Source: Patescibacteria group bacterium | GTDB lineage: Bacteria; Patescibacteriota; Microgenomatia; UBA10105; UBA927 | Direction: 5' to 3' | NCBI GenBank assembly: GCA_003545435.1 | Contig: DPYI01000025.1 | Location: forward strand, 19,701 to 83,700 | DNA: 64,000 nt | Shown: piece after piece, positions 10,913-29,207 of the stretch | Layout of the letters: every line of letters begins with the position of its first letter | Numbering within the stretch: position 1 is the first letter of the stretch | Notes under the pieces: model-generated | The model's input: the letters and a program-made list of their open reading frames with translations, nothing else | The model's database searches: none | Told to the model about the DNA's origin: nothing | Made by a program: the position numbers and the translations under genes

Positions 10913-11042
10913 AATCTTACAACCTGGCAAGTTTCTCCAGTCATCGTCCAGAAAAGCGTTTTTATTTTATCACAATCGATTTAGATTTTTTTCATATTCT
11001 ATCTCTAAGAGATATGCAACTGGCACATACTACCTTCTATTA

Positions 11043-11071
11043 TTGATTTATCCTTTGTGTTTAAGGATAAT
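11043..11071 (+). promoter_or_regulatory. Candidate sigma70-type promoter for the plus-strand TPP-enzyme gene, in the 178-nt divergent intergenic region 10913..11090
   Basis: TTGATT (11043..11048), a 17-nt spacer, then GATAAT (11066..11071); ATG at 11091. Confidence 0.3.
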
Positions 11072-11090
11072 ACCACTGTTACGTAATTTT

Positions 11091-12887: not shown

Positions 12888-13847
12888 TTACCGGTACGAT
12901 TGAGTCTTTTTATACCACACATATGTTTGTTGCAAACCCCTTCTCAATGAATGCGTATTTTTCCATCCCAACGCCCTTATTTTGTTATCATTCAGGTGCT
13001 GATATGGAATTTCACTTTTTGCTGAATTGAGAATTGTGTAGTGTATGTGCTTCTTTAGAATTTTTTCAGTGTTTTTTATCAAATCTAGGACAGAAAAATT
13101 ATTGTCAGATGATATATTAAAAGCCTGACCTGCTGTTCTCTTCATATGCCGGATTAGAAATGCTGTAGCCAGAGCTATATCTTTAACATAAACATAATCC
13201 CGTATATATGTTCCATCGCTTCGAACCTCAAGTACGGAGTTTGTAATCAGCGCTTTACATATTCCGGGAATAATCCTATCAAAATGTATGTCTCCTTCTC
13301 CAAACACGTTGCCAAACCGCGTAACGATAACCGGTAATCCATATGTTTTTCCATACGTCTGGGCTATGAGATCCGTGCAGGATTTGGATACATCATATGG
13401 ATGATCACCTTTCAGGGGGGATTCTTCCGTATACGGTTTGGTTGTCTTTCCGTATGCTTTGTCAGAAGAAGCTACAAGAATACCTTGTATACCGGCTGTA
13501 CGCCTGCATGCCTCCAGCACATGCACAGTACCCATAATGTTTGTTTTAAAAACATCATAGGGATTATCATACGCTTCCTGGACTATCGGAAGAGCCGCCA
13601 GATGGATAACATACGTTGGACTAACTGACGCAAATACTGCTTCAACTTTTTCTCTTTTTGTTATATCTATAATTTGATAATTTGTTTTCTTGTCTAATGA
13701 TTTCAGAAAAAAATACGATTTGCAGGGGTTTTGAATATCTATGACGGTAACGTCATATTTTTTTCGTACTAGCAGTTCTACGAGATGAGCCCCGATGAAT
13801 CCTGCTCCGCCGGTAACCAGTACACGGAGGGGTTCTAATCGTTCCAT
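12888..13847 (-). CDS. CDP-glucose 4,6-dehydratase-like SDR (RfbG/DdhB-like)
   Basis: Start set at MERLEPLRVLVTGGAGFIGAHL (ATG 13847); TNIMGTVHVLEA and HPYDVSKSCTDL (YxxxK) resemble the CDP-glucose 4,6-dehydratase signatures TNVMGTVHLLE and DPYSNSKGCAEL; immediately downstream of rfbF. Confidence 0.65.
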   Translation of the reverse strand: MERLEPLRVLVTGGAGFIGAHLVELLVRKKYDVTVIDIQNPCKSYFFLKSLDKKTNYQIIDITKREKVEAVFASVSPTYVIHLAALPIVQEAYDNPYDVFKTNIMGTVHVLEACRRTAGIQGILVASSDKAYGKTTKPYTEESPLKGDHPYDVSKSCTDLIAQTYGKTYGLPVIVTRFGNVFGEGDIHFDRIIPGICKALITNSVLEVRSDGTYIRDYVYVKDIALATAFLIRHMKRTAGQAFNISSDNNFSVLDLIKNTEKILKKHIHYTILNSAKSEIPYQHLNDNKIRALGWKNTHSLRRGLQQTYVWYKKTQSYR

Positions 13848-14620
13848 ATTTTCCAGGGAGGAGACTGTTCTTTCCATAGAGAGTTTAACCGCTCCACGTC
13901 TGCATAGGTGTCCATAGAATGCCAAAATCCTCTATGGATATACAGAGACAATTCACGTTTTTTTATGAGACGTTTCAATGCCTGGTGTTCCATTTCCCCC
14001 TTTTTAAGGTAATCGAAAAAACTATATTGGAAAATCATGAATCCGCCATTCACCCAATCCCGAAGCACCGGTTTTTCTATAAATTCAGTAATGACATTCC
14101 ATCTATTGATATGAACTAATCCGTATTTGCTCCGGGGGTACACTCCCGTGATAGTACCTGTAGTTTTTTGTTTTTTATGAAATGAGACCAATTCCTTAAC
14201 ATCTATATCCCCCACACCGTCTCCGTAGGTAACCATAAAATCTTCATTGTTTGGAATATAATCCTTTATCCTTAGAATCCGTTCTCCGGGAAGAGTATCA
14301 AGTCCCGTGTCAACAAACGTAATTTTAAAATCATCAATGCGTTTCCCGTCGGTTGTATCTCTGTAAATTTTGGCATACCCTGTTTTTGTCGATAACGTAA
14401 AATCATGAATAAAATATTTCTGATTGAGGAAATAATCCTTTATATATTCACCCTTATATCCCAATGCAATGATAAAGTCATTACATCCGTAATGGGAATA
14501 GATTTTCATAATGTGCCAGAGGATCGGTTTGTTTCCAATAAAAACCATTGGTTTTGGCTTAAATTCTGTTTCCTCTTTCAGGCGATATCCTATTCCGCCG
14601 CACAGAATAACTGTTTTCAT
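13835..14620 (-). CDS. rfbF: Glucose-1-phosphate cytidylyltransferase
   Basis: 261 aa; MKTVILCGGIGYRLKEETEFKPKPMVFIGNKPILWHIMKIYSHYG...PPWKIWND aligns along its whole length with Salmonella RfbF (MKAVILAGGLGTRLSEET...KPKPMVEIGGKPILWHIMK...APWKTWE). Confidence 0.9.
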   Translation of the reverse strand: MKTVILCGGIGYRLKEETEFKPKPMVFIGNKPILWHIMKIYSHYGCNDFIIALGYKGEYIKDYFLNQKYFIHDFTLSTKTGYAKIYRDTTDGKRIDDFKITFVDTGLDTLPGERILRIKDYIPNNEDFMVTYGDGVGDIDVKELVSFHKKQKTTGTITGVYPRSKYGLVHINRWNVITEFIEKPVLRDWVNGGFMIFQYSFFDYLKKGEMEHQALKRLIKKRELSLYIHRGFWHSMDTYADVERLNSLWKEQSPPWKIWND

Positions 14621-14670: not shown

Positions 14671-14770
14671 TGTCATTCCGGACTTGCCTCGCCCGGCAAA
14701 GCCTTGGCGAAGTCGGGATCCGGAATCCAGAGAACAATTGCCTAGATTCCTGCTTTCGGGAGGAATGACA
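14671..14770. repeat. Composite palindromic intergenic element, copy A (TGTCATTCCGGA...GGGAGGAATGACA)
   Basis: 100-nt nested inverted repeats in the 235-nt gap between a gene end and the rfbF start; termini and the internal GTCGGGATCC block are shared with copies B and C. Confidence 0.6.
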
Positions 14771-14854
14771 AGGTAGAACAGCCAAAAAAGTCATTCTCTA
14801 TTTTGTAACTCAAGCTATTATAGCAAAATGGTGCATATTTTACGAAGGTACGTG

Positions 14855-16522
14855 CTACTTCATACAATTCCTAATTCTCAAAACAACATCGTTTGTTATA
14901 TCAATGACCTTATGATCCGTAGAATCATAGTAAAATCCACGAATCTGATCAGAGTTGAATTTATTATTACACGAGTCTTTTTTAAGCAAATCAAGTGAAT
15001 GATAATATCCAAATCCTTGACCTCCGTCTTCAAAATAGCCTTGCTCAAGCATTCCCCAAAATGACATATCATATATTAATTTTTTTGGAATTTTTCCTGT
15101 ATCGTAAAAGAGAACCATAAATGTGAAACCGGGCCCCTGCTGGAGAGGCAGTCTCATGCCGGATACGCCATAAAAGCTTTCTGCGCTTCCCGTTGCATAC
15201 AATACGGGTTTTTCGGGAAGATCCGGGTATATGACCCGGACAGACTGAAGCATATTCTTCCGCTCTTCTCCGATAATTTTCTGATGCCGTATATCGCGGA
15301 TAATATATACACTTTGTTTATAGAGATACCCAACAGTAAATAAGGAAATACAGACTATAACTAATAATCGTAAATTTTTATTTTTATGACTTAATTCAAC
15401 AATTGAGGCTATTAAGCCCGAGATTAATAATCCGCCGGCTGCTGCCGCGAAAGAAAAATATCGGGAATCGAGATATTCACCGTTTCGATTTACTAAAGAA
15501 AACGGAATAAACGACACTACAAGAAGCAGGAATGAAATCAGGATAGCAAAGCGGTATTTTTTCCCAAAAAATAAAACACTGCTCATTCCAATAAACAAAA
15601 GAAGCGTACACCAAAGACCGACAATGTCAGTCATCATCAACTCCTGCACCACATGAATATTTTCAATATGTATGAGGCGTTCATAGCGGGACGAAAAAAC
15701 AATAGTAGATATAAAACGCATAACAGGAAGAGGAATAAATGTTTCACTGAAAGATATAAGGGGATACAGAAACGCATTTATTAGTATCCCTATCATCGGA
15801 GTTCCGCTTGATTCTGTTACTGCAAGCTGACTTTTCCATCCATGTATAAATATATCTGCAATCCGTACAATGATAATGAAAACAATGAATATAAAAAGAC
15901 TTGTATATCGTATGAATTCATCTTTCAATCCACCCAGGTCCCGCTTAGGTGCAGTAAATATGGGAAGAAGAGGCATCCAGGCAATGCTTGATTCCTTAAA
16001 GTAGTATGAAATAACCGCGCAGACAATACACCATATTCTCTTCTTCTTCAAAGCAAGGACAATTGACAGAAGCATAAAAAAAAGCGAGGGAAGAGCGGTA
16101 AATGACGTTGCCAGCCATGATACCGACTGATGACTTGCATAGCACACAGCATAAGATAATCCAGCAACGGTTGCAAAGATATGGGGAATGCCAAGAAGTC
16201 GTGCTATTTTACGAACCAATAATCCATTTATACTATGAACAAAAAGTGCAAATACTGCCCAGGGCAGAACATTCGTGCCGAACATATGAAACAATGAATA
16301 CTTGAGAACAGTGGAAAACGGACGATTTAAACCAACCAGAAGCAGGTGCAACGGAAATACTGACAATTCGACCTCGATTCCTCCAATCTTCGCAAGTCCC
16401 AATGAAACCCATTCATCCTGCTGGTAAAACGTAAATGGGAGATCGCGAAATGCGAAGAGGGCAAAACCTATGATAAGAAGCATTTCAAATACAGATACTA
16501 TGGTATAAGGTTTTTTCCTCAT
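14855..16522 (-). CDS. Polytopic membrane protein, paralog family E (putative GT-C glycosyltransferase/polymerase)
   Basis: 555 aa, more than 12 TM segments; C-terminal domain ...GQGFGYYHSLDLL...KVIDITNDVVLRIRNCMK is paralogous to 16679..18376. Confidence 0.55.
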   Translation of the reverse strand: MRKKPYTIVSVFEMLLIIGFALFAFRDLPFTFYQQDEWVSLGLAKIGGIEVELSVFPLHLLLVGLNRPFSTVLKYSLFHMFGTNVLPWAVFALFVHSINGLLVRKIARLLGIPHIFATVAGLSYAVCYASHQSVSWLATSFTALPSLFFMLLSIVLALKKKRIWCIVCAVISYYFKESSIAWMPLLPIFTAPKRDLGGLKDEFIRYTSLFIFIVFIIIVRIADIFIHGWKSQLAVTESSGTPMIGILINAFLYPLISFSETFIPLPVMRFISTIVFSSRYERLIHIENIHVVQELMMTDIVGLWCTLLLFIGMSSVLFFGKKYRFAILISFLLLVVSFIPFSLVNRNGEYLDSRYFSFAAAAGGLLISGLIASIVELSHKNKNLRLLVIVCISLFTVGYLYKQSVYIIRDIRHQKIIGEERKNMLQSVRVIYPDLPEKPVLYATGSAESFYGVSGMRLPLQQGPGFTFMVLFYDTGKIPKKLIYDMSFWGMLEQGYFEDGGQGFGYYHSLDLLKKDSCNNKFNSDQIRGFYYDSTDHKVIDITNDVVLRIRNCMK

Positions 16523-16571
16523 ATATACATGCAGAGATTAGAATCAATAACAAAACCTGATGGTTTGTCAC

Positions 16572-16654
16572 GTCATTGCGAGCGAAACGAAGTAAAGCGA
16601 AGCAATCTTTAGAATTATAGAGATTGCTTCGTCGTTGCACTCCTCGCAATGACA
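16572..16654. repeat. Composite palindromic intergenic element, copy B (GTCATTGCGAG...CTCGCAATGACA)
   Basis: Perfect 11-bp terminal inverted repeats GTCATTGCGAG/CTCGCAATGAC enclosing a second perfect hairpin CGAAGCAATCT/AGATTGCTTCG; lies between two tandem paralogs. Confidence 0.65.
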
Positions 16655-16678
16655 ATAAATGAGGTTTTGATACTAATT

Positions 16679-18376
16679 CTAATTAATACATCTCATGTCA
16701 ATTTCTTTCCTGATATCGCCTGTGATATCGATAAGTTTTCTTTCATTTCCGAAATAGTATAATCCGATAACCTGATCTGTCCGTAAAGCGCGATCTTTAT
16801 GAAAAAGATTACAAAGCGACTCCTTTTGCCAAAAATACCCAAATCCCTCTCCACCGATTTCCTTATACCCTTCTTCTAAAAACCGGCTTAAATATTTTTC
16901 ACGGATGAGTTGTCTGGGAATCTCATTCCTTTCTCTGAATGCCATCATGATCATAAATCCTGTCCCATATTGAAAGGGAACGACATTATTCTGGTAGAAA
17001 AAATTTCTATCCCCGGAAATATAGAAAATCGGTTTCTCAGAGAGCATCGGCACGATACGATTCATGTCTACAATCAGCTTCTGTATATCCATTGAATAAA
17101 GAACATTCTCATAGACATCCCTCTGAACAAAACTGATCTGTTTCCAGTAAAAAAACAATAATATAAATGCTACAATACATATCGACGGCATGACGCCAAA
17201 GAACCGCCGAAGAATAACAGAGACGTATTCCACACCCACCCCGAATATGAGTCCGAACCCGAAAATAGAATAATAGAGATACCGTGATTCTAAAAAGGAA
17301 GAATTCCTTTCAGGAAGATACATTGCCATCGGTAAGAATGATAAGACATACCAGAGAAGTCCGAATACTAAAAGTCTCCTCCTCTGTTTCATTTTTAAGT
17401 AAACGAGTAAAAACCCCCCAATAAGAATAAAAGAAAGAAGTGTTGATATCATATCGGACAGTATGGTCACGACGATGATATCCTTATTTGCCGCAACCCC
17501 CAGGAATTGATAGAGAAACACGCCAAAATGTTCACTTGTGCGAAAGAGGGTTCGGGGAGATATCATCATATGGGAAATGCTGATGAACGGGTACCAAACG
17601 CTGTTGAATATAATTCTGATAAGAATCTGTGTTGCTGTTGCCATTTCTGCAATGCTTTTAAACTGAAATAGGAGATACATGTTCCACGCAACAAAAAAAA
17701 TAAATAACGCAAAAATTCCTGCATATTTTCTAAAAAACCGTAAAATGTCTATTTTATTCTTGGAAAAAAAATACGGAGAAAACAAAAGGAGCGGCAAAAC
17801 GAAAATACAGCTGTTTTTGAAAAGAAACGCAATATAGAGAAATACAAAAGAAAGAAGGATGAGAACTTTCTTTCCGACGGCGAGAGTGGGCGGACGGATG
17901 ATAAATGCCAGATACACCATCGTGCTACTTAAAGTTGTCTGTACGACTGCACCAAACCATGAGATTGCCTGCTGACCGGAAGTTGGCACGGCAACTGACA
18001 AGATGCAAAGAAGTGACAAGAGAGAGTTTTTTGTCATTTTTTTGACTACAAAATAGGCAAGAATGATATTTATCGATCCGACAGCATAGCCAAATATCAC
18101 AAAAGGAGTCGCGTTTCCCGGAAAATAGTAGAAAAATACGTTATTTATCAGAGACCCGATAAACCGGAACCTTCCAGTAACCTGCAGGAGAATATTAGGA
18201 CTGATGCCGGCAAATAATCCATTTGCAAATACGCTTCCCATCTGTGTCCATTCGTCATTCAAAAAATATATGCGCGGCAAATCCTTAAATGCGATAGCGA
18301 ATGCAAAAAGAGATAGCGCAATTGAGGCGAATGGAATTATTTTTTGAAATTTTTTAGTTATCCGATTTTTTCTCAT
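16679..18376 (-). CDS. Polytopic membrane protein, paralog family E
   Basis: 565 aa; the same architecture and C-terminal motifs (GGEGFGYFWQKESL...KLIDITGDIRKEIDMRCIN) as 14855..16522. Confidence 0.55.
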   Translation of the reverse strand: MRKNRITKKFQKIIPFASIALSLFAFAIAFKDLPRIYFLNDEWTQMGSVFANGLFAGISPNILLQVTGRFRFIGSLINNVFFYYFPGNATPFVIFGYAVGSINIILAYFVVKKMTKNSLLSLLCILSVAVPTSGQQAISWFGAVVQTTLSSTMVYLAFIIRPPTLAVGKKVLILLSFVFLYIAFLFKNSCIFVLPLLLFSPYFFSKNKIDILRFFRKYAGIFALFIFFVAWNMYLLFQFKSIAEMATATQILIRIIFNSVWYPFISISHMMISPRTLFRTSEHFGVFLYQFLGVAANKDIIVVTILSDMISTLLSFILIGGFLLVYLKMKQRRRLLVFGLLWYVLSFLPMAMYLPERNSSFLESRYLYYSIFGFGLIFGVGVEYVSVILRRFFGVMPSICIVAFILLFFYWKQISFVQRDVYENVLYSMDIQKLIVDMNRIVPMLSEKPIFYISGDRNFFYQNNVVPFQYGTGFMIMMAFRERNEIPRQLIREKYLSRFLEEGYKEIGGEGFGYFWQKESLCNLFHKDRALRTDQVIGLYYFGNERKLIDITGDIRKEIDMRCIN

Positions 18377-19392
18377 AATTTCCTATCACGCACGAATGAA
18401 ACATAATACGAAATACGTGGGTATCTCATTATCTTTCTGAACAGCAATTCATCCGACATGCTCCTTATGTGTGCCTGTATGTAGCGTCTCATTTGTAGCG
18501 TTTTTTTACAATTTCGTATATTCCACAGTATCGCTTTTATAATAGACCAGCTAAACTGCAACCTTCCCCGAAGAAATGAATATAAAGCAAAACCAATACA
18601 TAAAAACACATGAATCGGCACTATCATAAGAAGCGCTTTGATCCCAAGATTCTTAAGGTAGGAACTGATCCGATTTTTAAATGAGTGGTACTGAATAAAT
18701 GCGCTGTTCATGGAGCTACTGGTTGCTCCCATTTTATGAAACACAACGGACGCGTGCACATAGATAATGCTGTATCCTGACAGCCAGATGCGGTGGCATA
18801 GATCTGTCTCCTCAAAATAGGCAAAATATGATGGGTCAAAAACATTTCCATCAACTAAAACAGCATCCAAAACCTGTTTCCTAAATAGCATGCATGCTCC
18901 TTTGGCTGTATAAAGGCAGATTCTTCTGTCAAATTTTTTTATATCTTTTTGTCCGAATCCGTAATGATATAAAAATCCCGTTGGTGTAAGAAATGCTCCG
19001 ATGCTGTCCAGCGTATCCGGTTTGTCCATAAGCAAAATTTTGCTTTGTGCTCCGCCAACTGATGCATCTTCTGCCATCTCTTTCACAAGCTCCGACAAAA
19101 ATGCTTCCGTAACTTTTACGTCATTATTCAAAAATAAGATATATTCCCCTTTTGTCTTTTGGTATCCGATGTTATTGGCATTGGAGAATCCCACGTTTTC
19201 ACTATTTTGAATGATGGTAGTCTTTGGATAGTGCTTTTTGACCCACTCGCATGATATATCATCGGAATTGTTGTCAACGAAAATAATTTCAAACTGCTTA
19301 TAGTCCTGTGTATGCAAAGACGTAAAACAGCCATGAAGCCATTTCATGCCATTCCAGTTTACGATAACAATGGAGACCAATCCCTTTTTCAT
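18373..19392 (-). CDS. GT2-family glycosyltransferase (soluble)
   Basis: 339 aa; LVSIVIVNWNGMKWLHGCFTSLHTQ...IIFVDNNSDD is a classic GT2 N-terminal domain. Confidence 0.75.
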   Translation of the reverse strand: MKKGLVSIVIVNWNGMKWLHGCFTSLHTQDYKQFEIIFVDNNSDDISCEWVKKHYPKTTIIQNSENVGFSNANNIGYQKTKGEYILFLNNDVKVTEAFLSELVKEMAEDASVGGAQSKILLMDKPDTLDSIGAFLTPTGFLYHYGFGQKDIKKFDRRICLYTAKGACMLFRKQVLDAVLVDGNVFDPSYFAYFEETDLCHRIWLSGYSIIYVHASVVFHKMGATSSSMNSAFIQYHSFKNRISSYLKNLGIKALLMIVPIHVFLCIGFALYSFLRGRLQFSWSIIKAILWNIRNCKKTLQMRRYIQAHIRSMSDELLFRKIMRYPRISYYVSFVRDRKL

Positions 19393-20234
19393 GCAAATCT
19401 CCCCCTTATATATCCCAGAAAAAGCGCGGTGGTTTCCATGATTTTCATGACGAGCATACCTACTCCGATTGCTGGTTGTTTGAAGAGCCGATCTGAATCG
19501 GAAAAAAACAAGGATAAGCGGGAGAATAGATTTGCCTGCCGCAGGCTTATGAAACGGTTTTCTGTCTTCCGGCTATACGCATACATACGCTTACCATAGT
19601 AATATTTCTTTTTCAAAAGAGCCCATAAAGAAATGTTGTCTTCGTTATGGATGATATACGCAGATATTCTTCCTATCGCAGCATGTCCATATGATGCTTT
19701 CAGTTTTTGAGGGAGATCAAAATCTTCCGGGCCTGTAAGCGTCTCGTCATATCCGCCAAGACGGATAAATGCGCTTCTTTTATAGAACCGGGCTGCCTCA
19801 ATCCATTCCACTCCTTCATAATACGTCCTTTCTAATGCTTTGCACTTAGCTAAAAAATTCTTGCCTTTTGACTTCTCCGGGATAACCATTGCCTGGTAGG
19901 GAGCGGTTCCTTTTTGGGATTTTTGCATTGCTTCTACACACTCCTCTATGACTTTTGGTGTCAGTTCCATATCCGCATCAATAAAAACAAAATACGTTCC
20001 CGTTGCTTTTGAGACTCCGAAATTCCGTTGGGCAGACCGTTCCGGACCTTTATCATAGACTCGCGCACCCAGCTTTTTCGCAATTGCCTTTGTCGCGTCC
20101 GTTGAGGCATTATCTACGACAACTGTCTCTACATGAGCATATGTTTGCTTATGGACGCTGCGTATGCAAGCCCTGATATGGGACTCCTCATTCCTAGCAG
20201 GAATAATAACGGAAACCACGCATTTATCTCTCAT
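19389..20234 (-). CDS. GT2-family glycosyltransferase
   Basis: VVSVIIPARNEESHIRACIRSV...VVVDNASTDAT; start trimmed to MRDKCVV (ATG 20234) to avoid overlap with the upstream FkbM gene. Confidence 0.7.
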   Translation of the reverse strand: MRDKCVVSVIIPARNEESHIRACIRSVHKQTYAHVETVVVDNASTDATKAIAKKLGARVYDKGPERSAQRNFGVSKATGTYFVFIDADMELTPKVIEECVEAMQKSQKGTAPYQAMVIPEKSKGKNFLAKCKALERTYYEGVEWIEAARFYKRSAFIRLGGYDETLTGPEDFDLPQKLKASYGHAAIGRISAYIIHNEDNISLWALLKKKYYYGKRMYAYSRKTENRFISLRQANLFSRLSLFFSDSDRLFKQPAIGVGMLVMKIMETTALFLGYIRGRFA

Positions 20235-21066
20235 AATCTGTAGCATAGGCGCTTTTTTGCTTAAACAGAATATCAACAGAAGTTATCTTTCCTTCTTCTT
20301 CATATTGCCGCCCGATACGTTCAATAATAAACGGATGTCGAAAATGTGTTAGATAAGAAATGACTTTTCCCAAATCCCCGGAATTCGGCCTGTGCAAACT
20401 GGCTTCTATCAATACATAACGGCATTTCTTCAGCGTCTGTTTAGCTGATATGAGAACGGTGTATTCGCTTCCTTCGGTATCGATTTTCAATAGGTCGATA
20501 ATGTTGGTCTTTCTTACACAATCAATATCATCTAATCTCATTCCCGGAACAACCTCAATCCTATCCTTATCTGAATAGGGAAAAAAAGATGACAGAAGCG
20601 TTGTTTGGGGAATATGCATCTTCATGGTTTTCGAAATCCCTACTGCCAGATGAACGGATGAAGGATCATTTTTTTTCAGGAACCTGTATGCTTCTTCTAT
20701 CGGTTCGACACTGCAAACATGCTTGGCAGAGAGGTAGCTATAAGAAAAAAAATTAAACTGACCGATATTCGCGCCAATATCTATAATCGTACTCCCTTTT
20801 TTTATATATCCTTCCATAAACGCATTATCCACGTAAACGCTCTGAAGAAAGGAAATTCCGAATTGGTCGTTAAAGTGATAGGTTCGTCCGAAGATGTGTA
20901 TCTTTCCCGATATCGGCATATTGATGATCTTTTTTATGGATAGCACCACAAGGAGATAGTATTTTTTTAGGAGAAACTCTAATTTTAGAGTATCAGGAAG
21001 GTGAAGCAGACAAAACTGCCAATCAAGTTCCAAAGAACGAAAAATAAACCACCATATCATTTTCAT
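20224..21066 (-). CDS. FkbM-family SAM-dependent methyltransferase
   Basis: 280 aa; GSTIIDIGANIGQFNFFSY... Rossmann motif with FkbM-type architecture; overlaps the upstream gene stop. Confidence 0.65.
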   Translation of the reverse strand: MKMIWWFIFRSLELDWQFCLLHLPDTLKLEFLLKKYYLLVVLSIKKIINMPISGKIHIFGRTYHFNDQFGISFLQSVYVDNAFMEGYIKKGSTIIDIGANIGQFNFFSYSYLSAKHVCSVEPIEEAYRFLKKNDPSSVHLAVGISKTMKMHIPQTTLLSSFFPYSDKDRIEVVPGMRLDDIDCVRKTNIIDLLKIDTEGSEYTVLISAKQTLKKCRYVLIEASLHRPNSGDLGKVISYLTHFRHPFIIERIGRQYEEEGKITSVDILFKQKSAYATDYER

Positions 21067-22754
21067 AACTCGTGTTTACTTCTGACAGGCCTCTCCCCGG
21101 CTCGGTTTATCATCTCAGGTGATATAATCTGATTTCTCCTATAGATTACCACAACGCTCCCGTCACTTGGTACTATCACTTCACCGATTGCTTGGTATGC
21201 ATGGGGATAAACATCCAAAATTTCATGAAAACAACCAGAAGATACCCCGTCAACAGGTGATGATACGTTTCTGGCAATAATGTAATCTTTATTTAAAAAA
21301 TCCATCATATTGAACGTTCCAATGCTGGATACATAGGAAAAAAGAAATACTCCGTTTGTCAAATAGTGTTCAATGGAATAGAGTGCATTAGTCAGAGGCT
21401 CATGGACAATCAAGACCGACACCTTTGTTGGCTTCTCCCTGCTGTCTTTTGCAATTATTGACACGACACTGTTTGCGTGAATATACTCTTTTACCGGAGG
21501 CCAGACCATGGATGTAAGATAAATCCTTCGCGGATGCTGGATAAAAGAAGGGAGAACGATATCCTTGAGCCCCTGTTTTCCCATAATTCCTATCCCCCAC
21601 AGACACCCGAAATAACTCATGACACTGAATGTGCTTATGAGAATAAATAGCGTCCAATAAAGACGAGGAGCTTTAATGCCTGTCAGCCAAATCCCGGAAA
21701 GCACGGCGATAATCGGATAAAGAGGAACAATAAACCGATCATCTTTCCACAAAAACGCCGCGGAAAAAACAATGTACGGAATCATGAAACTTAGGAGCAA
21801 TCCGCCGTATTTTGTAATCCGGAAAAAACAGAACCCGCATCCCAGGAGGAACAACATAAAATAGAAAACTGTATTTTGGGAAATAATGTTTAGGTAGTAC
21901 ACGAGCGTTTTGACAGACCAGGGATTTGCGTATTCAATCCCTTTGTATGCTGTTACCCATGCCGAGCTGTTTATACTGTTCCTTCGAACATAATCGAAAA
22001 ACAGAGAAATATTGGGAATGTAATAAAGAAACAAGGACAACATAACTGATAGAATTATGAAAATAAATGCATTTGATAACCGAATTATCTTTTGACTTTT
22101 TCTTTCTTTTTTCCATGAAACAACAAGGATAGACAATTCCCATAGTATTGCTCCTGAAATGAATATCGGTGCTACCCATCGCGTCAGGGATCCTCCAACA
22201 AACATAAGGGCTGCATAAACGCTCATCCGTCTGTTTAAAAATCCGTTACTTTTTAAAAGAAACAGCATCGATAAGGAAACCCACATGGTTGTTGCCGTTT
22301 CAGAATAAGCAAAATGCATATAAAAGAGAGGAAATCCCATTCCTGCAAAAATCAGAGAGGCAAGAACAGCGCTTCGCGTATTACCAAATTCTTTTACAAT
22401 AAAGTAGATAGCCAAAAGTGTCACGATAAAGTATATTCCGTTTACAAGAAGAGAGACAAAATAGCTTTGTTCCGGCCCGGTGATCGTAAGGACGATTGCA
22501 CTTATGAGAGGATAGAGCGGTTGCCTGTAGTCACTGGCCTTCATAAGTCTCGCCCATAGATCCGGAGAAGGAGACCGCAGTAGAGAGTAAAATGTTCTGG
22601 ATAATCCCACGTAATGGTGCTCGTCCCACTGCGGATACTGTCTGGTTTTTGAAATATATAGCATGTGACCGATAAAAATTCCTATGCATATGAAAGTCAG
22701 AAACAGTGTAGGAATATCACTCTTGGCTATCAATCTCATTTTTTTAATAATCAT
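21063..22754 (-). CDS. ArnT/PMT-like GT-C glycosyltransferase (GT39/GT83-like)
   Basis: Start trimmed to MIIKKMRL (ATG 22754); TM1 followed by PQWDEHHYVGLSRTF, the DE motif of ArnT/PMT lipid-linked sugar transferases; more than 10 TM segments; C-terminal soluble domain. Confidence 0.6.
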   Translation of the reverse strand: MIIKKMRLIAKSDIPTLFLTFICIGIFIGHMLYISKTRQYPQWDEHHYVGLSRTFYSLLRSPSPDLWARLMKASDYRQPLYPLISAIVLTITGPEQSYFVSLLVNGIYFIVTLLAIYFIVKEFGNTRSAVLASLIFAGMGFPLFYMHFAYSETATTMWVSLSMLFLLKSNGFLNRRMSVYAALMFVGGSLTRWVAPIFISGAILWELSILVVSWKKERKSQKIIRLSNAFIFIILSVMLSLFLYYIPNISLFFDYVRRNSINSSAWVTAYKGIEYANPWSVKTLVYYLNIISQNTVFYFMLFLLGCGFCFFRITKYGGLLLSFMIPYIVFSAAFLWKDDRFIVPLYPIIAVLSGIWLTGIKAPRLYWTLFILISTFSVMSYFGCLWGIGIMGKQGLKDIVLPSFIQHPRRIYLTSMVWPPVKEYIHANSVVSIIAKDSREKPTKVSVLIVHEPLTNALYSIEHYLTNGVFLFSYVSSIGTFNMMDFLNKDYIIARNVSSPVDGVSSGCFHEILDVYPHAYQAIGEVIVPSDGSVVVIYRRNQIISPEMINRAGERPVRSKHEL

Positions 22755-22770
22755 ACATATCAGCGAATCA

Positions 22771-24090
22771 TTACTGTTCGTTGTATTGAAGTATCGCAAA
22801 TGCCGATAGAATGCTGATAATGACAAGTGTGGCATACGTGGCAACAATTCCAATCCGTTTGCTCCAGTTTCCTTTAATAAATACCGGAAGACTGATACAC
22901 GCGCATAAAAAAAGCCACATCCGATGAATAACAAATGAAAAACCAAAAACCGGAACCCAAACCATTTCAAAAAGGGATAATCCTAAAAGCGTTAAAACAG
23001 GGCACATAATATGCGGTATTTTACCGATTCCTTCTTTCAAAAAGACAGCAAATGAAACCGCAAAAAACGGATAGAACGGATACCGGTACCATCCGTGACC
23101 CAATTCGCTGGGTATTGCAAAAAGAAACACCAGAAGATAGGACAGAAATCCAACGATGATGCCAATGTGTCTTTTGTAGTTAGCGGATATTACGACAAAA
23201 AGAACGATCCATCCCATATAAACCCATCCGTCAAGAAACGATCTGTCTGTAAGAAGCGGATCCTGAAATATTTTAAAGAAACTTCCGAAGCTTAATTGAT
23301 ATCGGTTCAGCTGAAGTTTCCATAATCCAAAAAAAACTTCTCTTCCGTATGCCATTCCATAGAAACAAAAAGCGGTAATACTCAATGCCGCCATGGCAAT
23401 GACACCGAATCCTTCTTTCTTCTTCTTATGAGAAAAAAAATACAGTGCAGAGGCAAGCGGCGCGGATATCCATGGAACTTTCGAAAGAGGTAATAAAAAA
23501 GAGAGGATAAAAACTAAAATGAGATACGTCTTATTTTTTTTGTCCACATACAATTTTGCCAAACCAAGACTTGTAAGAAATAACGGTATAAAAAAATTTT
23601 CATTCTGTAAAATGCGTGATCCGATAGCTATAGACGGAAATATAGAGTAAATTCCCGCACTTATAATCCCTGTTGTTGATCCATAAAAACTTGCAGCAAA
23701 GAAAAATACCGCAGCAATACTAAATATACCAAGGACAAAAGCAAGCGGACGAATGGTTGGAATTTCCACATCATCAAAATCCCGAACCCCGAATAGCATA
23801 TTGGACATGCCAGCAATCAGACCGAAAAAGGGCGGATGCTCAAGATAAGGGCGCACAAGACGAAAAAGTGTATGATCAGGATTCTGATAAAAGGTTACAT
23901 CTTTATATTGAGGATGCGGAGACCACGAAACAGGCACGCCTTCGGTAAGCAAACTTATTCCTAAATAGGACCATGCAAATTCATCAAACGTCGCACCTTC
24001 CCTGGGCCATATGTAAAGGTTTTTGTAACGTAACAGTCCGCCGATTGTTAAAATCAGTAACAATATCAAAATAACAGATAATTTTTTCAT
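22771..24090 (-). CDS. Polytopic membrane protein with N-terminal DE motif (putative small GT-C glycosyltransferase)
   Basis: 439 aa; signal/TM1 then EGATFDEFAWSYLG (DE loop motif), followed by about 11 TM segments. Confidence 0.5.
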   Translation of the reverse strand: MKKLSVILILLLILTIGGLLRYKNLYIWPREGATFDEFAWSYLGISLLTEGVPVSWSPHPQYKDVTFYQNPDHTLFRLVRPYLEHPPFFGLIAGMSNMLFGVRDFDDVEIPTIRPLAFVLGIFSIAAVFFFAASFYGSTTGIISAGIYSIFPSIAIGSRILQNENFFIPLFLTSLGLAKLYVDKKNKTYLILVFILSFLLPLSKVPWISAPLASALYFFSHKKKKEGFGVIAMAALSITAFCFYGMAYGREVFFGLWKLQLNRYQLSFGSFFKIFQDPLLTDRSFLDGWVYMGWIVLFVVISANYKRHIGIIVGFLSYLLVFLFAIPSELGHGWYRYPFYPFFAVSFAVFLKEGIGKIPHIMCPVLTLLGLSLFEMVWVPVFGFSFVIHRMWLFLCACISLPVFIKGNWSKRIGIVATYATLVIISILSAFAILQYNEQ

Positions 24091-25208
24091 AAGACTTGCC
24101 TGACTGCCTCTTTTAAAAACGCATCACTTTTTTTCCCTGCATCGGTCCACGTCAACGATTCAGCCCATGTATGAGCATTTGTTTGGTATTTTTTATATAT
24201 CTCTCTATCCTGATACAGATGTAGCGAAGCACGGGCTAACTCTATAGGTGAATTATCAGTAATAACAATTCCGGTATGTCCGTCACGTACGACATCACGA
24301 AGTCCGGCAACGTTATAAACAACCGATGGAGTATATAAAAAGCCTGCTTCTAATACTACCAATCCCCACCCTTCTTTTACCGAAGCATGTAACAGAATAT
24401 GCGCTTTCGCCATTCGTATAAGTTTTTCTTTTTCATTCAACTTACCAAACCATGTTACTTTTTCATATATACCGTATTCACGGATCATCGATACAATTTT
24501 TTTTACATATCGATCTTCTCCGCCGCCTACAATCCATAATTTGGCTAAGGGTAATTCTTTTTGAACAAATGCGAACGCTTTTACCACTTCTTCTATGCCT
24601 TTCATTTTTACCACACGGCTAACGAAAATGAATGTCGGTACTTTTTCTTTTTTTACATGAACTTGTAACGCTATGTGGCGGGTAAAATTCGGAATCGGAC
24701 AATGAATGACCGTGATTTGATTCCGTTTGATTCCCCGCTCCATAAGCTCATGACCGGTAGATTCTGCATCTGTCCAAAACAATTTCTTGCGATATAACCG
24801 AAGATACCATTCTTCCATATGCTTCCCGATCCAGGATATGGGAGGGTTATACATAAAATTCCATATGTCCCCAGCGATTTCATGTATAAATACAATGATC
24901 GGTTTACTGGTACATAAAGGAGAAAAAAAAGGAATTCCATGAACCTCATCAACTATCAAATCATATTCATGGCTATGGAGAAGCAGATAGAATGGTGCAA
25001 GAAGATAAACAGTCTGTGACCCTGCCTGACGAAGGATACGTACATTATCAATCAGTTCCTCTTTTTTGGCTCCTTTATATCCGGAAGTGAACCATGTTAC
25101 TTTGTGTCCCGCGTGAACCCACCATTTTGCATATTCCATCGTGACTGCTTCAGCTCCCCCGCTTTTCGGATGTCTGGTATCTCTCCAATTGAGTATTAAT
25201 ATACGCAT
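24087..25208 (-). CDS. GT4-family glycosyltransferase (GT-B fold)
   Basis: 373 aa; C-terminal GGGEDRY...EGWGLVVLEAGFLYTPSVVYNVAGLRDVV is the GT4 EX7E region. Confidence 0.75.
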   Translation of the reverse strand: MRILILNWRDTRHPKSGGAEAVTMEYAKWWVHAGHKVTWFTSGYKGAKKEELIDNVRILRQAGSQTVYLLAPFYLLLHSHEYDLIVDEVHGIPFFSPLCTSKPIIVFIHEIAGDIWNFMYNPPISWIGKHMEEWYLRLYRKKLFWTDAESTGHELMERGIKRNQITVIHCPIPNFTRHIALQVHVKKEKVPTFIFVSRVVKMKGIEEVVKAFAFVQKELPLAKLWIVGGGEDRYVKKIVSMIREYGIYEKVTWFGKLNEKEKLIRMAKAHILLHASVKEGWGLVVLEAGFLYTPSVVYNVAGLRDVVRDGHTGIVITDNSPIELARASLHLYQDREIYKKYQTNAHTWAESLTWTDAGKKSDAFLKEAVRQVL

Positions 25209-25211
25209 ACA

Positions 25212-26003
25212 TTATCCTATGTTTATTCTGAAATTTAATTCCGGATCAAACCTCCATTTACGTTTATTAGTATTATCATAATAATGGAGAATATAAAGAC
25301 GATAAAAAACCGCAAGTGTGTCCTGCAACATATTTTTCACGGTATATATAACCTTTTTGGATGTAATACTTGATTGTACGTTTGCAAAATCCAGTTCAAC
25401 CGGAGCTTCATATATGCGTGTATAGCCTAAATAATAGGAAACAGCCAGCATTTCAATATCAAAAGCGAACTGTTTTACCAGAAGTCTTGGAAGGACATCT
25501 TCCAGAAGCTTCCTTTTATATATTTTCATCCCGACCTGCGTATCAGTGATATTAAGTCCAAAAAGAATTCTAACTATCTTCTGATACACCCACGAATAGA
25601 TCTTCCTAACCCAAGGGTAGATAATTTTCGAACCAGGATGACGTTTGCTTCCGATCACGATATCTGCTTTTTGGTATAAAAATTGTGTAATCATAAGCGG
25701 TAATGCGGATACGTTCAGATCTCCTCCGGCATCCATAAAACCGATGACATCCCCTGTTGCATGCGCAAATCCATATCTGACAGCATACCCTTTCCCGTGA
25801 TTTGTTTTATACCCTGCAATAATTATCCGTTTGTCCTTTATTTTCTGTATTTCTTCCCTGCTGTTGTCTAGCTCCCCGTCTATTACCGGTATTATCTCAA
25901 AAGGGACGGAAAGAGTTGATAAAGCCTTAATAGCTGATTGGATGTCCCGTTTAATCGTGTGCTCTTGCTTATATACGGGAATGATGAGAGAAAATTTCTT
26001 CAT
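25212..26003 (-). CDS. GT2 polyprenyl-phosphate sugar synthase (Dpm1-like)
   Basis: 263 aa; FSLIIPVYKQEH...IPVIDGELDNS...GFMDAGGDL are GT2 DXD motifs, at the size of Dol-P-Man/Glc synthases. Confidence 0.7.
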   Translation of the reverse strand: MKKFSLIIPVYKQEHTIKRDIQSAIKALSTLSVPFEIIPVIDGELDNSREEIQKIKDKRIIIAGYKTNHGKGYAVRYGFAHATGDVIGFMDAGGDLNVSALPLMITQFLYQKADIVIGSKRHPGSKIIYPWVRKIYSWVYQKIVRILFGLNITDTQVGMKIYKRKLLEDVLPRLLVKQFAFDIEMLAVSYYLGYTRIYEAPVELDFANVQSSITSKKVIYTVKNMLQDTLAVFYRLYILHYYDNTNKRKWRFDPELNFRINIG

Positions 26004-27262
26004 GCTGATTGTATTGAAGACGTCTTACTATACATATAGTAAAGAAATGCAGATACCGCAAATAAGAAGGTCACTCCGATATTTACGGAAATAACCTCCA
26101 TAATGGAATGATGGAAAAATGAAATAAAAACGATCTGAGTTATTGCAGCACAGACCGTTATAAACCATATAGAAAGTCTATTGATCGCAAGGCAGGCCAG
26201 AACAAAAACATTTCCCAACGAATACAGTGAAATAAAAGACGCAAAATAACCCAGGTATAAAGCTGCACCGCTGTAAGATGAACCAAAAAGAAGATGAATT
26301 ACTAACGCGGGTTTAATAAAGTAGATGAATGTGATTCCTATAGAAATAGCACACACTAATCCAAGTGCTACAACAAAGATTTTTCCTATTGGTTCTTTTT
26401 TTACCGATCGTTCAGACAAAACCGGAAATAAAACAGTCACAATAGCACTTGATGCGTAGAATATTACTTTCCCGAGAGTTGCAATTGCTGAATATAATCC
26501 TGCTTCCTGCGGAGTGAGAAAATGCCTGACCAGTACTATATCCATTGAATACAGCGATGTAAGCCCTAAAAGACTGATAAATGTGGGAATGCTGAATAAA
26601 ATCAGAGATTTTTTGGTAAGCGGAAACGGCTTACGTGCAGCGGTAAAAATAAATCTCATTGGAAAATACAAAAGTCCTAATGTTATAAAAGCAGCCAGAC
26701 CGGTACCTATCATGGTCCATTCTACCCCGAACCAGGCAAGAGGCGTACTGATAGAGAACTTTAAAAACATTCCTACACTGCTAAACACAGAGACCCACAA
26801 AAAAAGCTGAAAACCCTGCAATACGCTCAGATTTACTGCTGTAAAAATTGAAACTACGAAAATGAGAAATATCCAAAGCAGAGACCTGGGAGTAGTAAGA
26901 TTAAGAAATGATCCCAACAGAGGAATCAGCATGATAAATACTATGCATGAAATGCAGGTTATTTTCACAAGAATTTTCACCATTCGAAAGTAAAGGTCTT
27001 TTGCCTCACCCCGTGCATTGCCGGCCTTACACTCTGAAAAATATTTTGTAAGTACGGTTTGAAGTACTACCATTGGGACGCCAAAGATATAAAGAAGCGA
27101 TATGAGGGAGGATAATTCTCCGTATCCCACTGGTCCGAGTATGCGTCCTGCGAACAAATGATAAAGGTAGGATCCGATATTTGAAATCATGCTCCCTACA
27201 AAAACAATCGCACTCCCCCGCATGAGCGTATTGGAGGTAATTTTCGTAAGTAATTTGTGCAT
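26000..27262 (-). CDS. Wzx-like oligosaccharide flippase / polysaccharide biosynthesis protein (MOP superfamily)
   Basis: 420 aa, about 12 TM segments; N-terminal LMRGSAIVFVGSMISNIGSYLYHLFAGRILGPVGYGELS is typical of Wzx/'polysaccharide biosynthesis protein' flippases. Confidence 0.65.
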   Translation of the reverse strand: MHKLLTKITSNTLMRGSAIVFVGSMISNIGSYLYHLFAGRILGPVGYGELSSLISLLYIFGVPMVVLQTVLTKYFSECKAGNARGEAKDLYFRMVKILVKITCISCIVFIMLIPLLGSFLNLTTPRSLLWIFLIFVVSIFTAVNLSVLQGFQLFLWVSVFSSVGMFLKFSISTPLAWFGVEWTMIGTGLAAFITLGLLYFPMRFIFTAARKPFPLTKKSLILFSIPTFISLLGLTSLYSMDIVLVRHFLTPQEAGLYSAIATLGKVIFYASSAIVTVLFPVLSERSVKKEPIGKIFVVALGLVCAISIGITFIYFIKPALVIHLLFGSSYSGAALYLGYFASFISLYSLGNVFVLACLAINRLSIWFITVCAAITQIVFISFFHHSIMEVISVNIGVTFLFAVSAFLYYMYSKTSSIQSA

Positions 27263-27296
27263 ATACTTGTCTTATACAGAATACGTTCATTCATCT

Positions 27297-27389
27297 TGTC
27301 ATTGCGACCCCGCCTTTGGCGGGGGAAGCAATCTTTATAATAAAGATCGCTTCGTCTCCCGACGTAACGTCGGGATCCTCGCGATGACA
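27297..27389. repeat. Composite palindromic intergenic element, copy C (GTCATTGCGACC...CTCGCGATGACA)
   Basis: Termini match copies A and B; three internal hairpins (CCCCGCC-TTTG-GCGGGGG; GAAGCAATCTTTA/TAAAGATCGCTTC; TCCCGACG-TAA-CGTCGGGA); lies between the flippase start and the GT2 stop. Confidence 0.65.
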
Positions 27390-27435
27390 GAGTGCGTAAG
27401 TTATGATATACAATAAGTTCGTTCTCATCTTTTTG

Positions 27436-28116
27436 TTAAACTCTGTTTTTGATGAGCGTCCATAAAGCTACCACTCCGTCAATCCACGTTAACTTTTTCC
27501 CTTCTTCGAATTTCCTGCCGAAGTATGATATGGGGACTTCATATATCTGATATCCTTTTTTTAGTATTTTTGCGGTAAATTCCGGCTCAAAATCAAATCG
27601 TTTCGCCTTCAGTGTCATTCCGTCAATAACTTTTCTTCTGAATACTTTGTATCCGGTCTCCATATCGGTAATGTTCGTATTATAAAGAATATTGGTTATA
27701 AAAGTTACAAATTTATTCCCCAATGCATACATATACATTGTAGAAAGATGAGGTCCCAAAAATCGCGACCCATAGACGACATCAACATGCGGATTATCAA
27801 ATGGAGACAGAAGCGTTTCATAATCTTTGGGGTTGTATTCAAGGTCTGCATCTTGAATAAGAACAAGATCTCCACTGGCGTACTTTAGACCTTCAATGAT
27901 CGCGCTTCCTTTCCCTTCGTTATGTATTTTATAAATAATCCTGTTTATCTTCTGCCATTTTTTCAACAACATCGGCGTCTTATCTGATGACCCATCATCA
28001 ACAACAATCACCTCCTTCACCCATCCGGGCTTTTTCCAGGATTCAACAGCCCCCAAAATGGCGTCAACAGTTCTCTCTTCGTTATAGACCGGGATAATTA
28101 TAGATAATTTGTTCAT
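27436..28116 (-). CDS. GT2 polyprenyl-phosphate sugar synthase (Dpm1/ArnC-like, soluble)
   Basis: Start set at MNKLSIIIPVYNEERTV (ATG 28116, ATGA overlap with the upstream stop); VVDDGSSDKT and DADLEYNP motifs. Confidence 0.8.
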   Translation of the reverse strand: MNKLSIIIPVYNEERTVDAILGAVESWKKPGWVKEVIVVDDGSSDKTPMLLKKWQKINRIIYKIHNEGKGSAIIEGLKYASGDLVLIQDADLEYNPKDYETLLSPFDNPHVDVVYGSRFLGPHLSTMYMYALGNKFVTFITNILYNTNITDMETGYKVFRRKVIDGMTLKAKRFDFEPEFTAKILKKGYQIYEVPISYFGRKFEEGKKLTWIDGVVALWTLIKNRV

Positions 28117-29207
28117 GCTACAAACCATCCTCTCAAAAACAAAGCCGATAAAATAATCTGAAGGATAACAAACAACAGTACAATGCTGTATTGTAAAGAC
28201 CGATTATCCAATTTACCGAGTATCAAAAAAAGAGGAAACGCAGAAAGAATATATCGGGGCATGGAAGATAACGTGCCCGTTAAAGTCGGAAGTGTTATCA
28301 CCAGAAAACTGTACATAAGGTCAGACCATGACGTCTTCATTTTCCATCCTAACCACAAGACGCAATAACCAAACAGTGTTGCGATTAATTCTACTATAGA
28401 TATGAAATAGGAAACCGGTGTCGGCTGGAGAAACGCAGTAAACAGAATCTTTAAATACCGCCACACAACCTGAGGCAATATGATAATACCATCGGTGCGA
28501 TTGGCTCCGAAGAGAGGCTGCATGTGGAAAAAATATAACGGATCACCTTTTGCTACGTATAAATATGTCATATACACAATAAGTCCCATAGGAATACATA
28601 AGATCGAAACAATGTCGCGGAGCAATATTTTTTTGGGCTTCTGACTAATATATTCAATTGCTGCATAAAACAATAATAACGCTCCAAATAGTTTTGTGGC
28701 GCTTGCTAACGCTCCAAATATTCCCGCCCACATCCATAATTTTCTTTTTGAAAATACATACACGAGCACGGAAAGAAGAAAAAATAATCCTTCTGTATAC
28801 ACTGCACAGAAAAAAAAGCTTGTTGGAAAGGTAATTAAAAAAACTACTGTCCACAAAGCGGTATGTTTATTTGTTCCGTATACATAGGAATGGAAAATAA
28901 GAACACCGATACTATATGAGGCCAATGAAATATATGTTCCTATTATCCAATATGGTACATCAAATAATTTTCTAAACGATGAGATAAGTATGGGGTAAAA
29001 CGGGAAGAAAGCTTCGCTTAAATGAAAATATCCATATTCGGCTATACGTAAATAATAAATACCGTCATGGTTTGCCCACGGACTGGGTCCGTTATATCCT
29101 ATATGTAACGGCACCATAGAGGAATATCTCTCGACGATATACAATGCTATCCGCCAAATCATCAATAACAAAATGACATTCCTGCTAATTTCCCAAAACT
29201 TTCTCAT
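28113..29207 (-). CDS. Polytopic membrane protein (364 aa), GT-C/mannosyltransferase-like (DUF2029/PIG-V-like guess)
   Basis: About 10 TM segments, an early periplasmic-loop acidic motif (RIAEYGYFHLSEAFFPFYP). Function inferred from context only. Confidence 0.45.
   Translation of the reverse strand: MRKFWEISRNVILLLMIWRIALYIVERYSSMVPLHIGYNGPSPWANHDGIYYLRIAEYGYFHLSEAFFPFYPILISSFRKLFDVPYWIIGTYISLASYSIGVLIFHSYVYGTNKHTALWTVVFLITFPTSFFFCAVYTEGLFFLLSVLVYVFSKRKLWMWAGIFGALASATKLFGALLLFYAAIEYISQKPKKILLRDIVSILCIPMGLIVYMTYLYVAKGDPLYFFHMQPLFGANRTDGIIILPQVVWRYLKILFTAFLQPTPVSYFISIVELIATLFGYCVLWLGWKMKTSWSDLMYSFLVITLPTLTGTLSSMPRYILSAFPLFLILGKLDNRSLQYSIVLLFVILQIILSALFLRGWFVA

Follow-up and report, generated by a model that had tools for sequence, protein, structure and literature searches.

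Probable CGTC-type REP dimers inserted in a glycan-biosynthesis cluster of a Patescibacteria genome, with a sister variant found across many phyla

The stretch of DNA analyzed here is a 64-kb window of contig DPYI01000025.1 (GenBank assembly GCA_003545435.1), which derives from a Patescibacteria group bacterium. By protein matches, the window belongs with a Microgenomates/Gottesmanbacteria metagenome-assembled genome from Rifle groundwater (GCA_000998865.1, contig LCFF01000001.1). The window is one nearly gap-free glycan-biosynthesis super-cluster of ~45 genes, nearly all on the minus strand, that encode GT2 and GT4 glycosyltransferases, DegT aminotransferases, epimerases, and a nucleoside triphosphate (NTP)-transferase. 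Only five internal gaps exceed 40 nt, and three of the four largest are occupied by elements A, B, and C – composite palindromes of 84–100 nt that are the subject of this study (Table 1). Element A separates a 555-aa membrane protein gene from the NTP-transferase gene, lying 84 nt past the upstream stop codon and 50 nt ahead of the next start codon. Element B is found between two large membrane protein genes (24 nt past the stop codon and 48 nt ahead of the next start codon), and element C between a GT2 glycosyltransferase gene and a flippase-like gene (46 and 34 nt, respectively). All neighbors of the three elements are on the minus strand, which bears out an initial annotation of this DNA that had described the flanking genes as co-directional.

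Table 1. Positions of the three palindromic elements, their repeat units, and the flanking genes within the 64-kb window.
Feature	Coordinates	Strand	Sequence	Description
Element A	14671..14770	.	TGTCATTCCGGA...GGAGGAATGACA	Head-to-head (tags outside) pair of CGTC-1-like REP units
Element B	16571..16654	.	CGTCATTGCGAG...CTCGCAATGACA	Head-to-head pair of 'GCGA-variant' units
Element C	27297..27389	.	TGTCATTGCGACC...CTCGCGATGACA	Head-to-head pair of 'GCGA-variant' units
Unit A1	14671..14729	+	ATTCCGGA/TCCGGAAT (stem)	Tag TGTC, 8-bp stem, oversized 36-nt structured loop, tail CCA
Unit A2	14743..14770	-	ATTCCTCC/GCAGGAAT (stem)	Tag TGTC, one mismatch in stem, CGAAA loop, tail CTA
Unit B1	16571..16609	+	CGTC-ATTGC-GAG-[CGAAACGAAGTAAAGC]-GAA-GCAAT-CTT	
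Unit B2	16620..16654	-	TGTC-ATTGC-GAG-[GAGTGCAACGAC]-GAA-GCAAT-CTC	
Unit C1	27297..27335	+	TGTC-ATTGC-GA-[CCCCGCC TTT GGCGGGG]-GAA-GCAAT-CTT	
Unit C2	27343..27389	-	TGTC-ATCGC-GAG-[GA TCCCGAC GTTAC GTCGGGA GAC]-GAA-GCGAT-CTT	
NTP-transferase gene	13835-14620	-		Flanks element A
Membrane protein gene (555 aa)	14855-16522	-		Flanks elements A and B
Large membrane protein gene	16679-18376	-		Flanks element B
Flippase-like gene	26000-27262	-		Flanks element C
GT2 glycosyltransferase gene	27436-28128	-		Flanks element C

The three elements have common ends, YGTCATT(G/C)C...G(C/G)AATGACR, and terminal inverted repeats of 10–12 bp that are perfect or near-perfect. The sequence GTCATTSCGR has exactly four matches in the window, every one at an element end, while shuffled windows contain a mean of 0.60 and none of 100 reached four. 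Similarly, the inner block GAAGCRATCT has four matches, all within B and C, where 0.30 would be expected from shuffles. The common motifs are thus far above chance frequency. By both RNA and DNA folding, all three elements form multi-branched hairpins in which the terminal stem closes, with energies of −37 to −58 kcal/mol and z-scores of −3.2 to −8.7 for RNA and z-scores of −2.8 to −7.9 for DNA. These motif counts and folds show the three intergenic palindromes with shared termini to be real. Nine independent assemblies of the source population have the same sequence at element C, with which a tenth contig, ending within the element, agrees over the part it covers, so the element is not an assembly artefact.

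Scanning the window for a tag plus a complementary 5-nt stem returned six real units, which make up the three inverted pairs. The five remaining matches are all intragenic, and their number equals the chance expectation of ~5. Each unit runs from YGTC through a stem beginning AT, an apical part, and the returning stem to a short C-rich tail. The stem of the A units is ATTCC.../...GGAAT, and A2 is close to the canonical unit of a published repeat type, CGTC-1 (GTCATTCCCGCGAAAGCGGGAATCCAG). The ends of B and C (GTCATTGCGAG...GAAGCAATC) define a 'GCGA' variant, the stem of which is related to that of CGTC-1 by a compensated C/G swap (ATTGC/GCAAT vs ATTCC/GGAAT). A second change, to ATCGC/GCGAT in C2, is likewise compensatory – the unit's own stem stays paired and the pairing between units is weakened. 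The variable apical hairpin of the B and C units spans 7–24 nt. As in CGTC-1, the GCGA-variant apex is a GCG(A)AAGC-type mini-hairpin, and the B2 apex, GTGCAAC, is a mini-hairpin with a G-N-A triloop. Two folds are available to each inverted pair, a set of two local hairpins or a single long branched hairpin.

We also observed a 10-mer, GTCGGGATCC, that is common to A (14713–14722) and C (27370–27379), in both cases within side hairpins (TCCCGAC...GTCGGGA), although A and C are of different unit types. The 10-mer may represent a common hairpin module in the source genome. Together with the confinement of GAAGCRATCT to B and C, it accounts for the shared internal blocks that had been noted from the sequence.

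The unit organization is that of the CGTC-tagged repetitive extragenic palindromes (REPs) defined by Di Nocera, De Gregorio & Rocco (2013, BMC Genomics 14:522; PMC3733652). The initial annotation could not match the family to a named one; a published name exists. As described in the text of PMC3733652, a CGTC REP unit comprises the tag CGTC (sometimes TGTC or CCTC), an 8–9 bp stem starting AT, a loop of 4–5 nt, and a 3-nt tail near CCA. The units form mostly head-to-head dimers with tags outside, though singletons occur too, and they lie between unidirectional or convergent open reading frames (ORFs) near the upstream 3′ end, with occasional intragenic copies. The same text reports the units from five phyla, equates CGTC-1 with Neisseria dRS3 and Rickettsia RPE-6, and describes them as without a linked transposase, their copying agent being stated as unknown.

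The window elements resemble this description closely. The tag is TGTC in five units and CGTC in one, each followed by AT, and the tails are CCA and CTA in A and CTT or CTC in B and C. All three elements are head-to-head dimers, located 24–84 nt past stop codons between minus-strand genes, and no transposase accompanies them in the window or recurs within 2 kb of 272 related copies. Element A has the 8–9 bp stem as well (8 of 8 positions paired in A1 and 7 of 8 in A2), and A2 has the 4–5 nt loop. We consider it likely that A, B, and C are inserted head-to-head dimers of CGTC-type REP units. Judged by sequence, A is of the published CGTC-1 type and B and C are of the sister GCGA variant. The finding is a member of an already named, very widespread class. 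What is new is the host, which belongs to the Candidate Phyla Radiation (CPR), the evidence that all three copies are lineage-specific, and the characterization of the GCGA variant with its variable side hairpins. Neither the CPR host nor the Chloroflexota, Cyanobacteriota, Planctomycetota, Nitrospirota, and Zixibacteria that carry related copies are among the five phyla named in the text of PMC3733652.

Evidence for insertion comes from relatives in which the same genes adjoin. The junction between the GT2 and flippase-like genes that contains element C measures 173 nt in the window, compared with 57 nt, 0–11 nt, and 33 nt in the three available relatives (L131/132, L133/134, and L135/136, respectively). 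The motif is absent from this junction in all three, and their GT2 proteins are 75–80% identical to that of the window. Relative L326 retains the order of the three genes around B and A (protein identities of 60%, 62%, and 74%), but its B junction measures 8 nt rather than 156 nt and its A junction 49 nt rather than 234 nt, both without the motif. The nearest relatives have none of the elements at the orthologous junctions, so A, B, and C are probably lineage-specific insertions. The reverse difference is also found: L135, a Microgenomates contig, has a short CGTC-1-like inverted pair (TGTCATTCCGGCC...GGCATGACA, 5809–5866) in a 73-nt gap between its MptA_B and PMT_2 genes, the window counterparts of which (33287–34480 and 31806–33290) overlap by 4 nt.

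A further pair of filled and empty sites was identified in an unrelated lineage. In L098 (4858–4946) and L065 (3274–3364) a dimer follows the stop codon by 7–10 nt between phage-like genes, and in the empty counterpart (L303, ~1013–1029; 80–85% identical) the stop and start codons are 9 nt apart. No target duplication is visible in this comparison. The filled sites contain the dimer plus ~15 nt with a new Shine-Dalgarno-like GGAG before the downstream ATG. Relatives of a Novosphingobium megaplasmid, considered as a further source of empty sites, are only ~75% identical and proved unusable.

The gene order around these junctions bears on the possibility that the elements are sites of double-stranded or cruciform DNA – either bound by gyrase or a nucleoid protein, or recombination hot spots at which glycosyltransferase cassettes are exchanged. 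Gyrase binding is known for the REPs of Escherichia coli, and phage integration and recombination take place at Neisseria dRS3, a CGTC-1 member. Consistent with such a role, the structure is symmetric between strands, conservation of the core is at the level of sequence and not of pairing pattern, the elements stand at module borders of a variable glycan cluster, and in a Novosphingobium replicon the similarity to a related replicon sets in 12 nt past an element. However, the three genes around A and B have the same order in the element-less relative, so no cassette exchange is visible there, and the window encodes no integrase or recombinase. We regard this explanation as quite improbable.

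The GCGA variant is widespread. The pattern GTCATTGCGA-N45-75-TCGCAATGAC has at least 120 matches in each of two collections, one viral and one of genomes, which disposes of the possibility, raised in the initial annotation, that no further copies exist. Among the matches listed, hosts span ~10 phyla and include four other Patescibacteria metagenome-assembled genomes alongside Alpha- and Gammaproteobacteria, 'Deltaproteobacteria'/Desulfobacterota, Bacteroidota, Cyanobacteriota, Chloroflexota, Planctomycetota, Nitrospirota, Zixibacteria, and Modulibacteria. Cultured phages contain no match to the element pattern, so the 'viral' hits are probably prophage-like, gene transfer agent-like, or host fragments. 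Copies can be numerous within one replicon: the Novosphingobium resinovorum megaplasmid pSA1 (L257, 1.76 Mb) has at least 40 matching places. At one of these (20001–20075), 12 nt separate the element from the start of similarity to the nearest related replicon, a possible synteny break at a REP.

The consensus of ~260 non-redundant copies reads YGTCATTGCGAG – linker – GAAGCAATCC(AG) – variable loop (median 17 nt) – GGATTGCTTC – linker – CTCGCAATGACR, and family statistics were based on 263–265 such copies. Immediately before the element, 65% of 263 copies have C and 29% have T, which completes the CGTC/TGTC tag. The linker takes one of two forms. The first is C-G-N-A-G-C, which with the preceding G reads GCGNAGC, with all four bases represented at N. 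The second is an arbitrary hairpin with a stem sequence that varies by copy – we counted 90 distinct long linkers, with a mean folding energy about twice that of shuffles. In other genomes the tail is mostly ...GCAAT-CCAG (CAG follows AATC in 101 of 249 copies), and low-GC hosts have CTC or CTT together with the AATCT form of the inner stem, as in B and C. Partnerless single units are common, accounting for 43 of 98 extra termini. Thirteen loci resemble the window in having both GCGA and CGTC-1 unit types, and no dimer mixing the two types was found among the examined loci. One locus (L101, 3052–3440) has three near-identical GCGA-type dimers in tandem, ~156 nt apart, in contrast to the dispersed copies elsewhere.

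By rough ORF-based gene calls, the cleanly assigned copies lie between tandem genes in 105 cases, convergent genes in 37, and divergent genes in 7, with 27 nt as the median distance from a gene 3′ end. Among 68 asymmetric dimers between tandem genes, the longer linker is on the transcriptional 3′ arm in 46 and on the 5′ arm in 22; B and C are of the minority orientation.

This distribution would also fit the view that A, B, and C are not selfish DNA and instead are selected cis-acting RNA signals of a long glycan operon, such as mRNA stabilizers, processing sites, or attenuators. Consistent with this explanation, the folds on the transcribed strand are very stable (−37 to −57 kcal/mol), the elements always follow a stop codon and leave 34–50 nt before the next start codon, and copies across the family are near gene 3′ ends and avoid divergent promoter regions. 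The text of PMC3733652 likewise argues for an RNA role of many REPs. Position is not conserved, however, with A, B, and C missing at the same junctions in relatives, and the same sequence is found beside unrelated genes in ~10 phyla among the matches listed. Sense and antisense strands fold equally well in 104 tandem-gene copies (48 vs 52; Wilcoxon p = 0.35). No Rfam family corresponds to the elements: Rfam 15 at the gathering threshold gave no match in the window or in ten canonical-copy loci, and permissive E-values, applied to one copy, returned only generic miRNA-hairpin models far below threshold. An origin as selected RNA signals thus seems unlikely.

GC-rich hairpins downstream of genes could also be ordinary gene-specific intrinsic terminators that resemble one another by chance, as the initial annotation had allowed. 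A terminator scan flags none of A, B, and C, and no T run follows any of them. Across 263 copies the first two bases after the element are purines. In addition, separate origins at individual genes cannot yield identical 10-nt ends together with the identical 9-nt inner block found in ~10 phyla. We consider the terminator explanation hardly credible.

Several points weigh against the identification of the elements as inserted CGTC-type dimers. Instead of an 8–9 bp stem, the B and C units have five Watson-Crick pairs followed by a G/A-rich internal loop, and instead of a 4–5 nt loop, A1 has one of 36 nt and the B and C units have loops of 12–24 nt with hairpins of their own. With its 5-bp stem and long structured loop, the GCGA variant thus falls outside the published dimensions – though the text of PMC3733652 mentions unusual loops in Bradyrhizobium CGTC-1 and units with bulges or odd loops that were discarded or possibly missed. 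The separation of the GCGA variant from published CGTC REPs is itself based on the text of that paper. Under nearest-neighbor rules, a single canonical GCGA unit folds no better than shuffles. The conserved stems are invariant among ten low-GC copies aligned – conserved as sequence, not as a pairing pattern – so covariation neither supports nor contradicts these stems. Across units, the 5-bp stem shows modest compensation (7 of 23 units changed on both sides are fully compensated).

The remaining adverse points concern movement. Proteins of the element-less relatives are only 60–80% identical to those of the window, so loss of the elements in those lineages is conceivable. The source-population assemblies in which the adjacent GT2 gene is present do not differ at element C and give no sign of recent movement. 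The copy count in this genome is based on the three dimers of the 64-kb window. Finally, a mobilizing enzyme is entirely hypothetical, and no candidate was found.

A, B, and C are non-coding, non-autonomous DNA, and they are most likely non-autonomous REPIN-like selfish palindromes. Early analysis had proposed REP/BIME-like or MITE-like mobile palindromes (BIME, bacterial interspersed mosaic element; MITE, miniature inverted-repeat transposable element). This proposal was right in kind, since the elements are inverted REP pairs, comparable to REPINs, that are absent at orthologous junctions; the classical MITE version is weakened by the lack of a target-site duplication. Classical MITEs are deletion derivatives of an insertion sequence (IS) with a DDE transposase and are moved via their terminal inverted repeats. 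The perfect or near-perfect 10–12 bp terminal inverted repeats, the presence/absence differences between lineages, and the multiple copies across genomes are all consistent with such an origin. However, direct repeats of 2–10 nt at the flanks of 263 copies were not above a shuffled-partner control, and none appeared in the comparison of filled and empty sites. No ORF-carrying or parent-IS version with the same ends was found in ~2.5 Mb of loci, and the frequent partnerless units fit REP units, not the two ends of a MITE. The elements are thus very improbable as classical MITEs.

We looked for a linked mobilization gene in several ways. The 64-kb window contains no transposase, RAYT, integrase, or recombinase gene. 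Clustering of proteins encoded within 2 kb of 272 copies (all-against-all BLAST, judged by eye) identified only phage structural genes as recurrent, and these recur because of viral-collection bias. An association with small GIY-YIG nuclease genes, of the kind found next to such repeats, was rejected, as no nuclease- or transposase-like family recurs in the same set. Pairs of lone termini 0.5–3.3 kb apart were found in four cases, and the three inspected contained no transposase-like ORF.

One mechanism that could reconcile these observations is that a trans-acting enzyme with specificity for both structure and sequence would copy or move the elements in the form of single-stranded DNA hairpins, in the manner of GTAG REPs and REPINs. 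RAYT/REP and IS200/IS605 systems use a single-stranded DNA intermediate. The lack of a duplication, the hairpin architecture, the orientation bias, and the nature of the unit apices fit such an intermediate. Across the family (L001–L256) the apex reads d(GCGNAGC), where each of the four bases is represented at N, or d(GCGAAAGC), and window units B2 and A2 also have apices of these kinds. Both motifs are described as 'extraordinarily stable' DNA mini-hairpins, with melting temperatures of 70–76 °C and G-N-A triloops only, and they occur at phage G4 and ssiA priming sites (PMC13037366). None of the literature consulted, including the text of PMC3733652, draws a link between REP apices and stable DNA mini-hairpins. 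Our analysis suggests a single-stranded DNA mobilization step as a tentative possibility, somewhat short of probable.

Under this mechanism, inserted copies would survive only at harmless sites, just downstream of stop codons and between co-directional or convergent genes. Once in an operon, a copy would be transcribed and form a very stable RNA structure that may act as a barrier to 3′ exonucleases, be a target of RNase III, or weaken the coupling of translation. Such effects on mRNA, plausible by analogy with the REPs and BIMEs of E. coli, would be a side effect of the elements rather than the reason for their existence. The identical core in ~10 phyla argues against neutral vertical inheritance and for horizontal spread, along with recognition by a sequence-specific factor.

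Among other repeat systems, A, B, and C are comparable to REPINs, which are reportedly inverted doublets of GTAG-type REPs that occur with RAYT transposases, as Bertels & Rainey in 2011 and Nunvar et al. in 2010 are said to have described. The two have in common a pair of inverted REP units that folds as one long hairpin, non-autonomy, the lack of a target duplication, an intergenic position after gene 3′ ends, and genome-specific sub-families. They differ in the tag – GTAG in REPINs and CGTC/TGTC here – and in that no RAYT or other Y1/HUH gene was found in the window. In addition, REPIN-RAYT systems are reportedly inherited mostly vertically and lineage-specific in sequence, whereas the same core is found here in ~10 phyla. 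The BIMEs of E. coli, which are known to stabilize upstream mRNA, are also composites of inverted REP units with short linkers that are transcribed within operons. Their unit sequence is unrelated (GTAG-3 type), however, and they have defined linker motifs and, in some classes, an integration host factor (IHF) site, and are confined to enterobacteria. The Correia elements of Neisseria, RUP, ERIC, Nezha, and Chunjie resemble A, B, and C as intergenic palindromes of 100–150 nt that are co-transcribed and fold as hairpins. Correia-like MITEs differ in that they duplicate their target (TA or other sequences), have DDE transposases as their source or requirement, and are genus-specific, none of which holds here.

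The palindromes also have consequences for annotation. The supplement of PMC3733652 lists the CGTC-1-encoded peptides VIPAKAGI(Q), SFPRKRES, and DSRLRGND. VIPAKAGIQ is the translation of the canonical CGTC-1 unit, and this exact 27-mer is present in 68 stretches of the viral collection, often as head-to-head dimers. Over element C, a 45-aa ORF was called in two assemblies (L122, 10689–10826, and L129, 813–950, equivalent to window positions 27291–27428 on the minus strand); its product, MRTNLLYIITYALCHREDPDVTSGDEAIFIIKIASPAKGGVAMTR, is a spurious protein from the palindrome. Full-text literature searches for spurious palindrome-encoded peptides gave no matches, and those for the terminal and core DNA strings gave unrelated primer matches only. 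The elements yield spurious small ORF calls and swell gaps in otherwise gap-free operons, such that masking is advisable for annotators.

The remainder of the window has features of its own. It encodes an unusual number of large GT-C-like membrane proteins (PMT_2, YfhO, AftD-like, MptA_B, and PTPS_related). A split transketolase, with separate N-terminal and C-terminal genes, and a thiamine pyrophosphate (TPP)-dependent enzyme on the opposite strand are encoded among sugar-modifying genes (6328–8090 and 10887–12872). Tandem paralog arrays are also present, including 42697–42947 and 44266–44516 (74% identity), with further paralog repeats at 45805/47462/61864 and 46106/47793/62162.

Palindromes of the REP type rank with the most common bacterial non-coding repeats, and for the CGTC super-family the text of PMC3733652 states that the copying agent is unknown. 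Our results suggest that this class is also present in CPR genomes, which are ultra-small and for which repeats are not a known feature. The GCGA core combines the CGTC tag, the ATTGC/GCAAT stem, and the d(GCGNAGC) mini-hairpin apex. It is doubtful, though conceivable, that the GCGA variant is an undescribed and still spreading CGTC REP sub-family – a palindromic replicator of the transposase-orphan kind, the core of which is the same in at least ~10 phyla. If so, single-stranded DNA recognition would be performed by a very widespread host or mobile enzyme with no dedicated linked transposase, and phylogenetic profiling could find that enzyme, given that the insertions are lineage-specific and the CPR genome is gene-poor. 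The mobilizing enzyme could emerge from differences in gene content between genomes that have the elements and those that lack them, and there is a small chance that the GCGA variant and its identity across phyla may lead to the missing mobilization mechanism.

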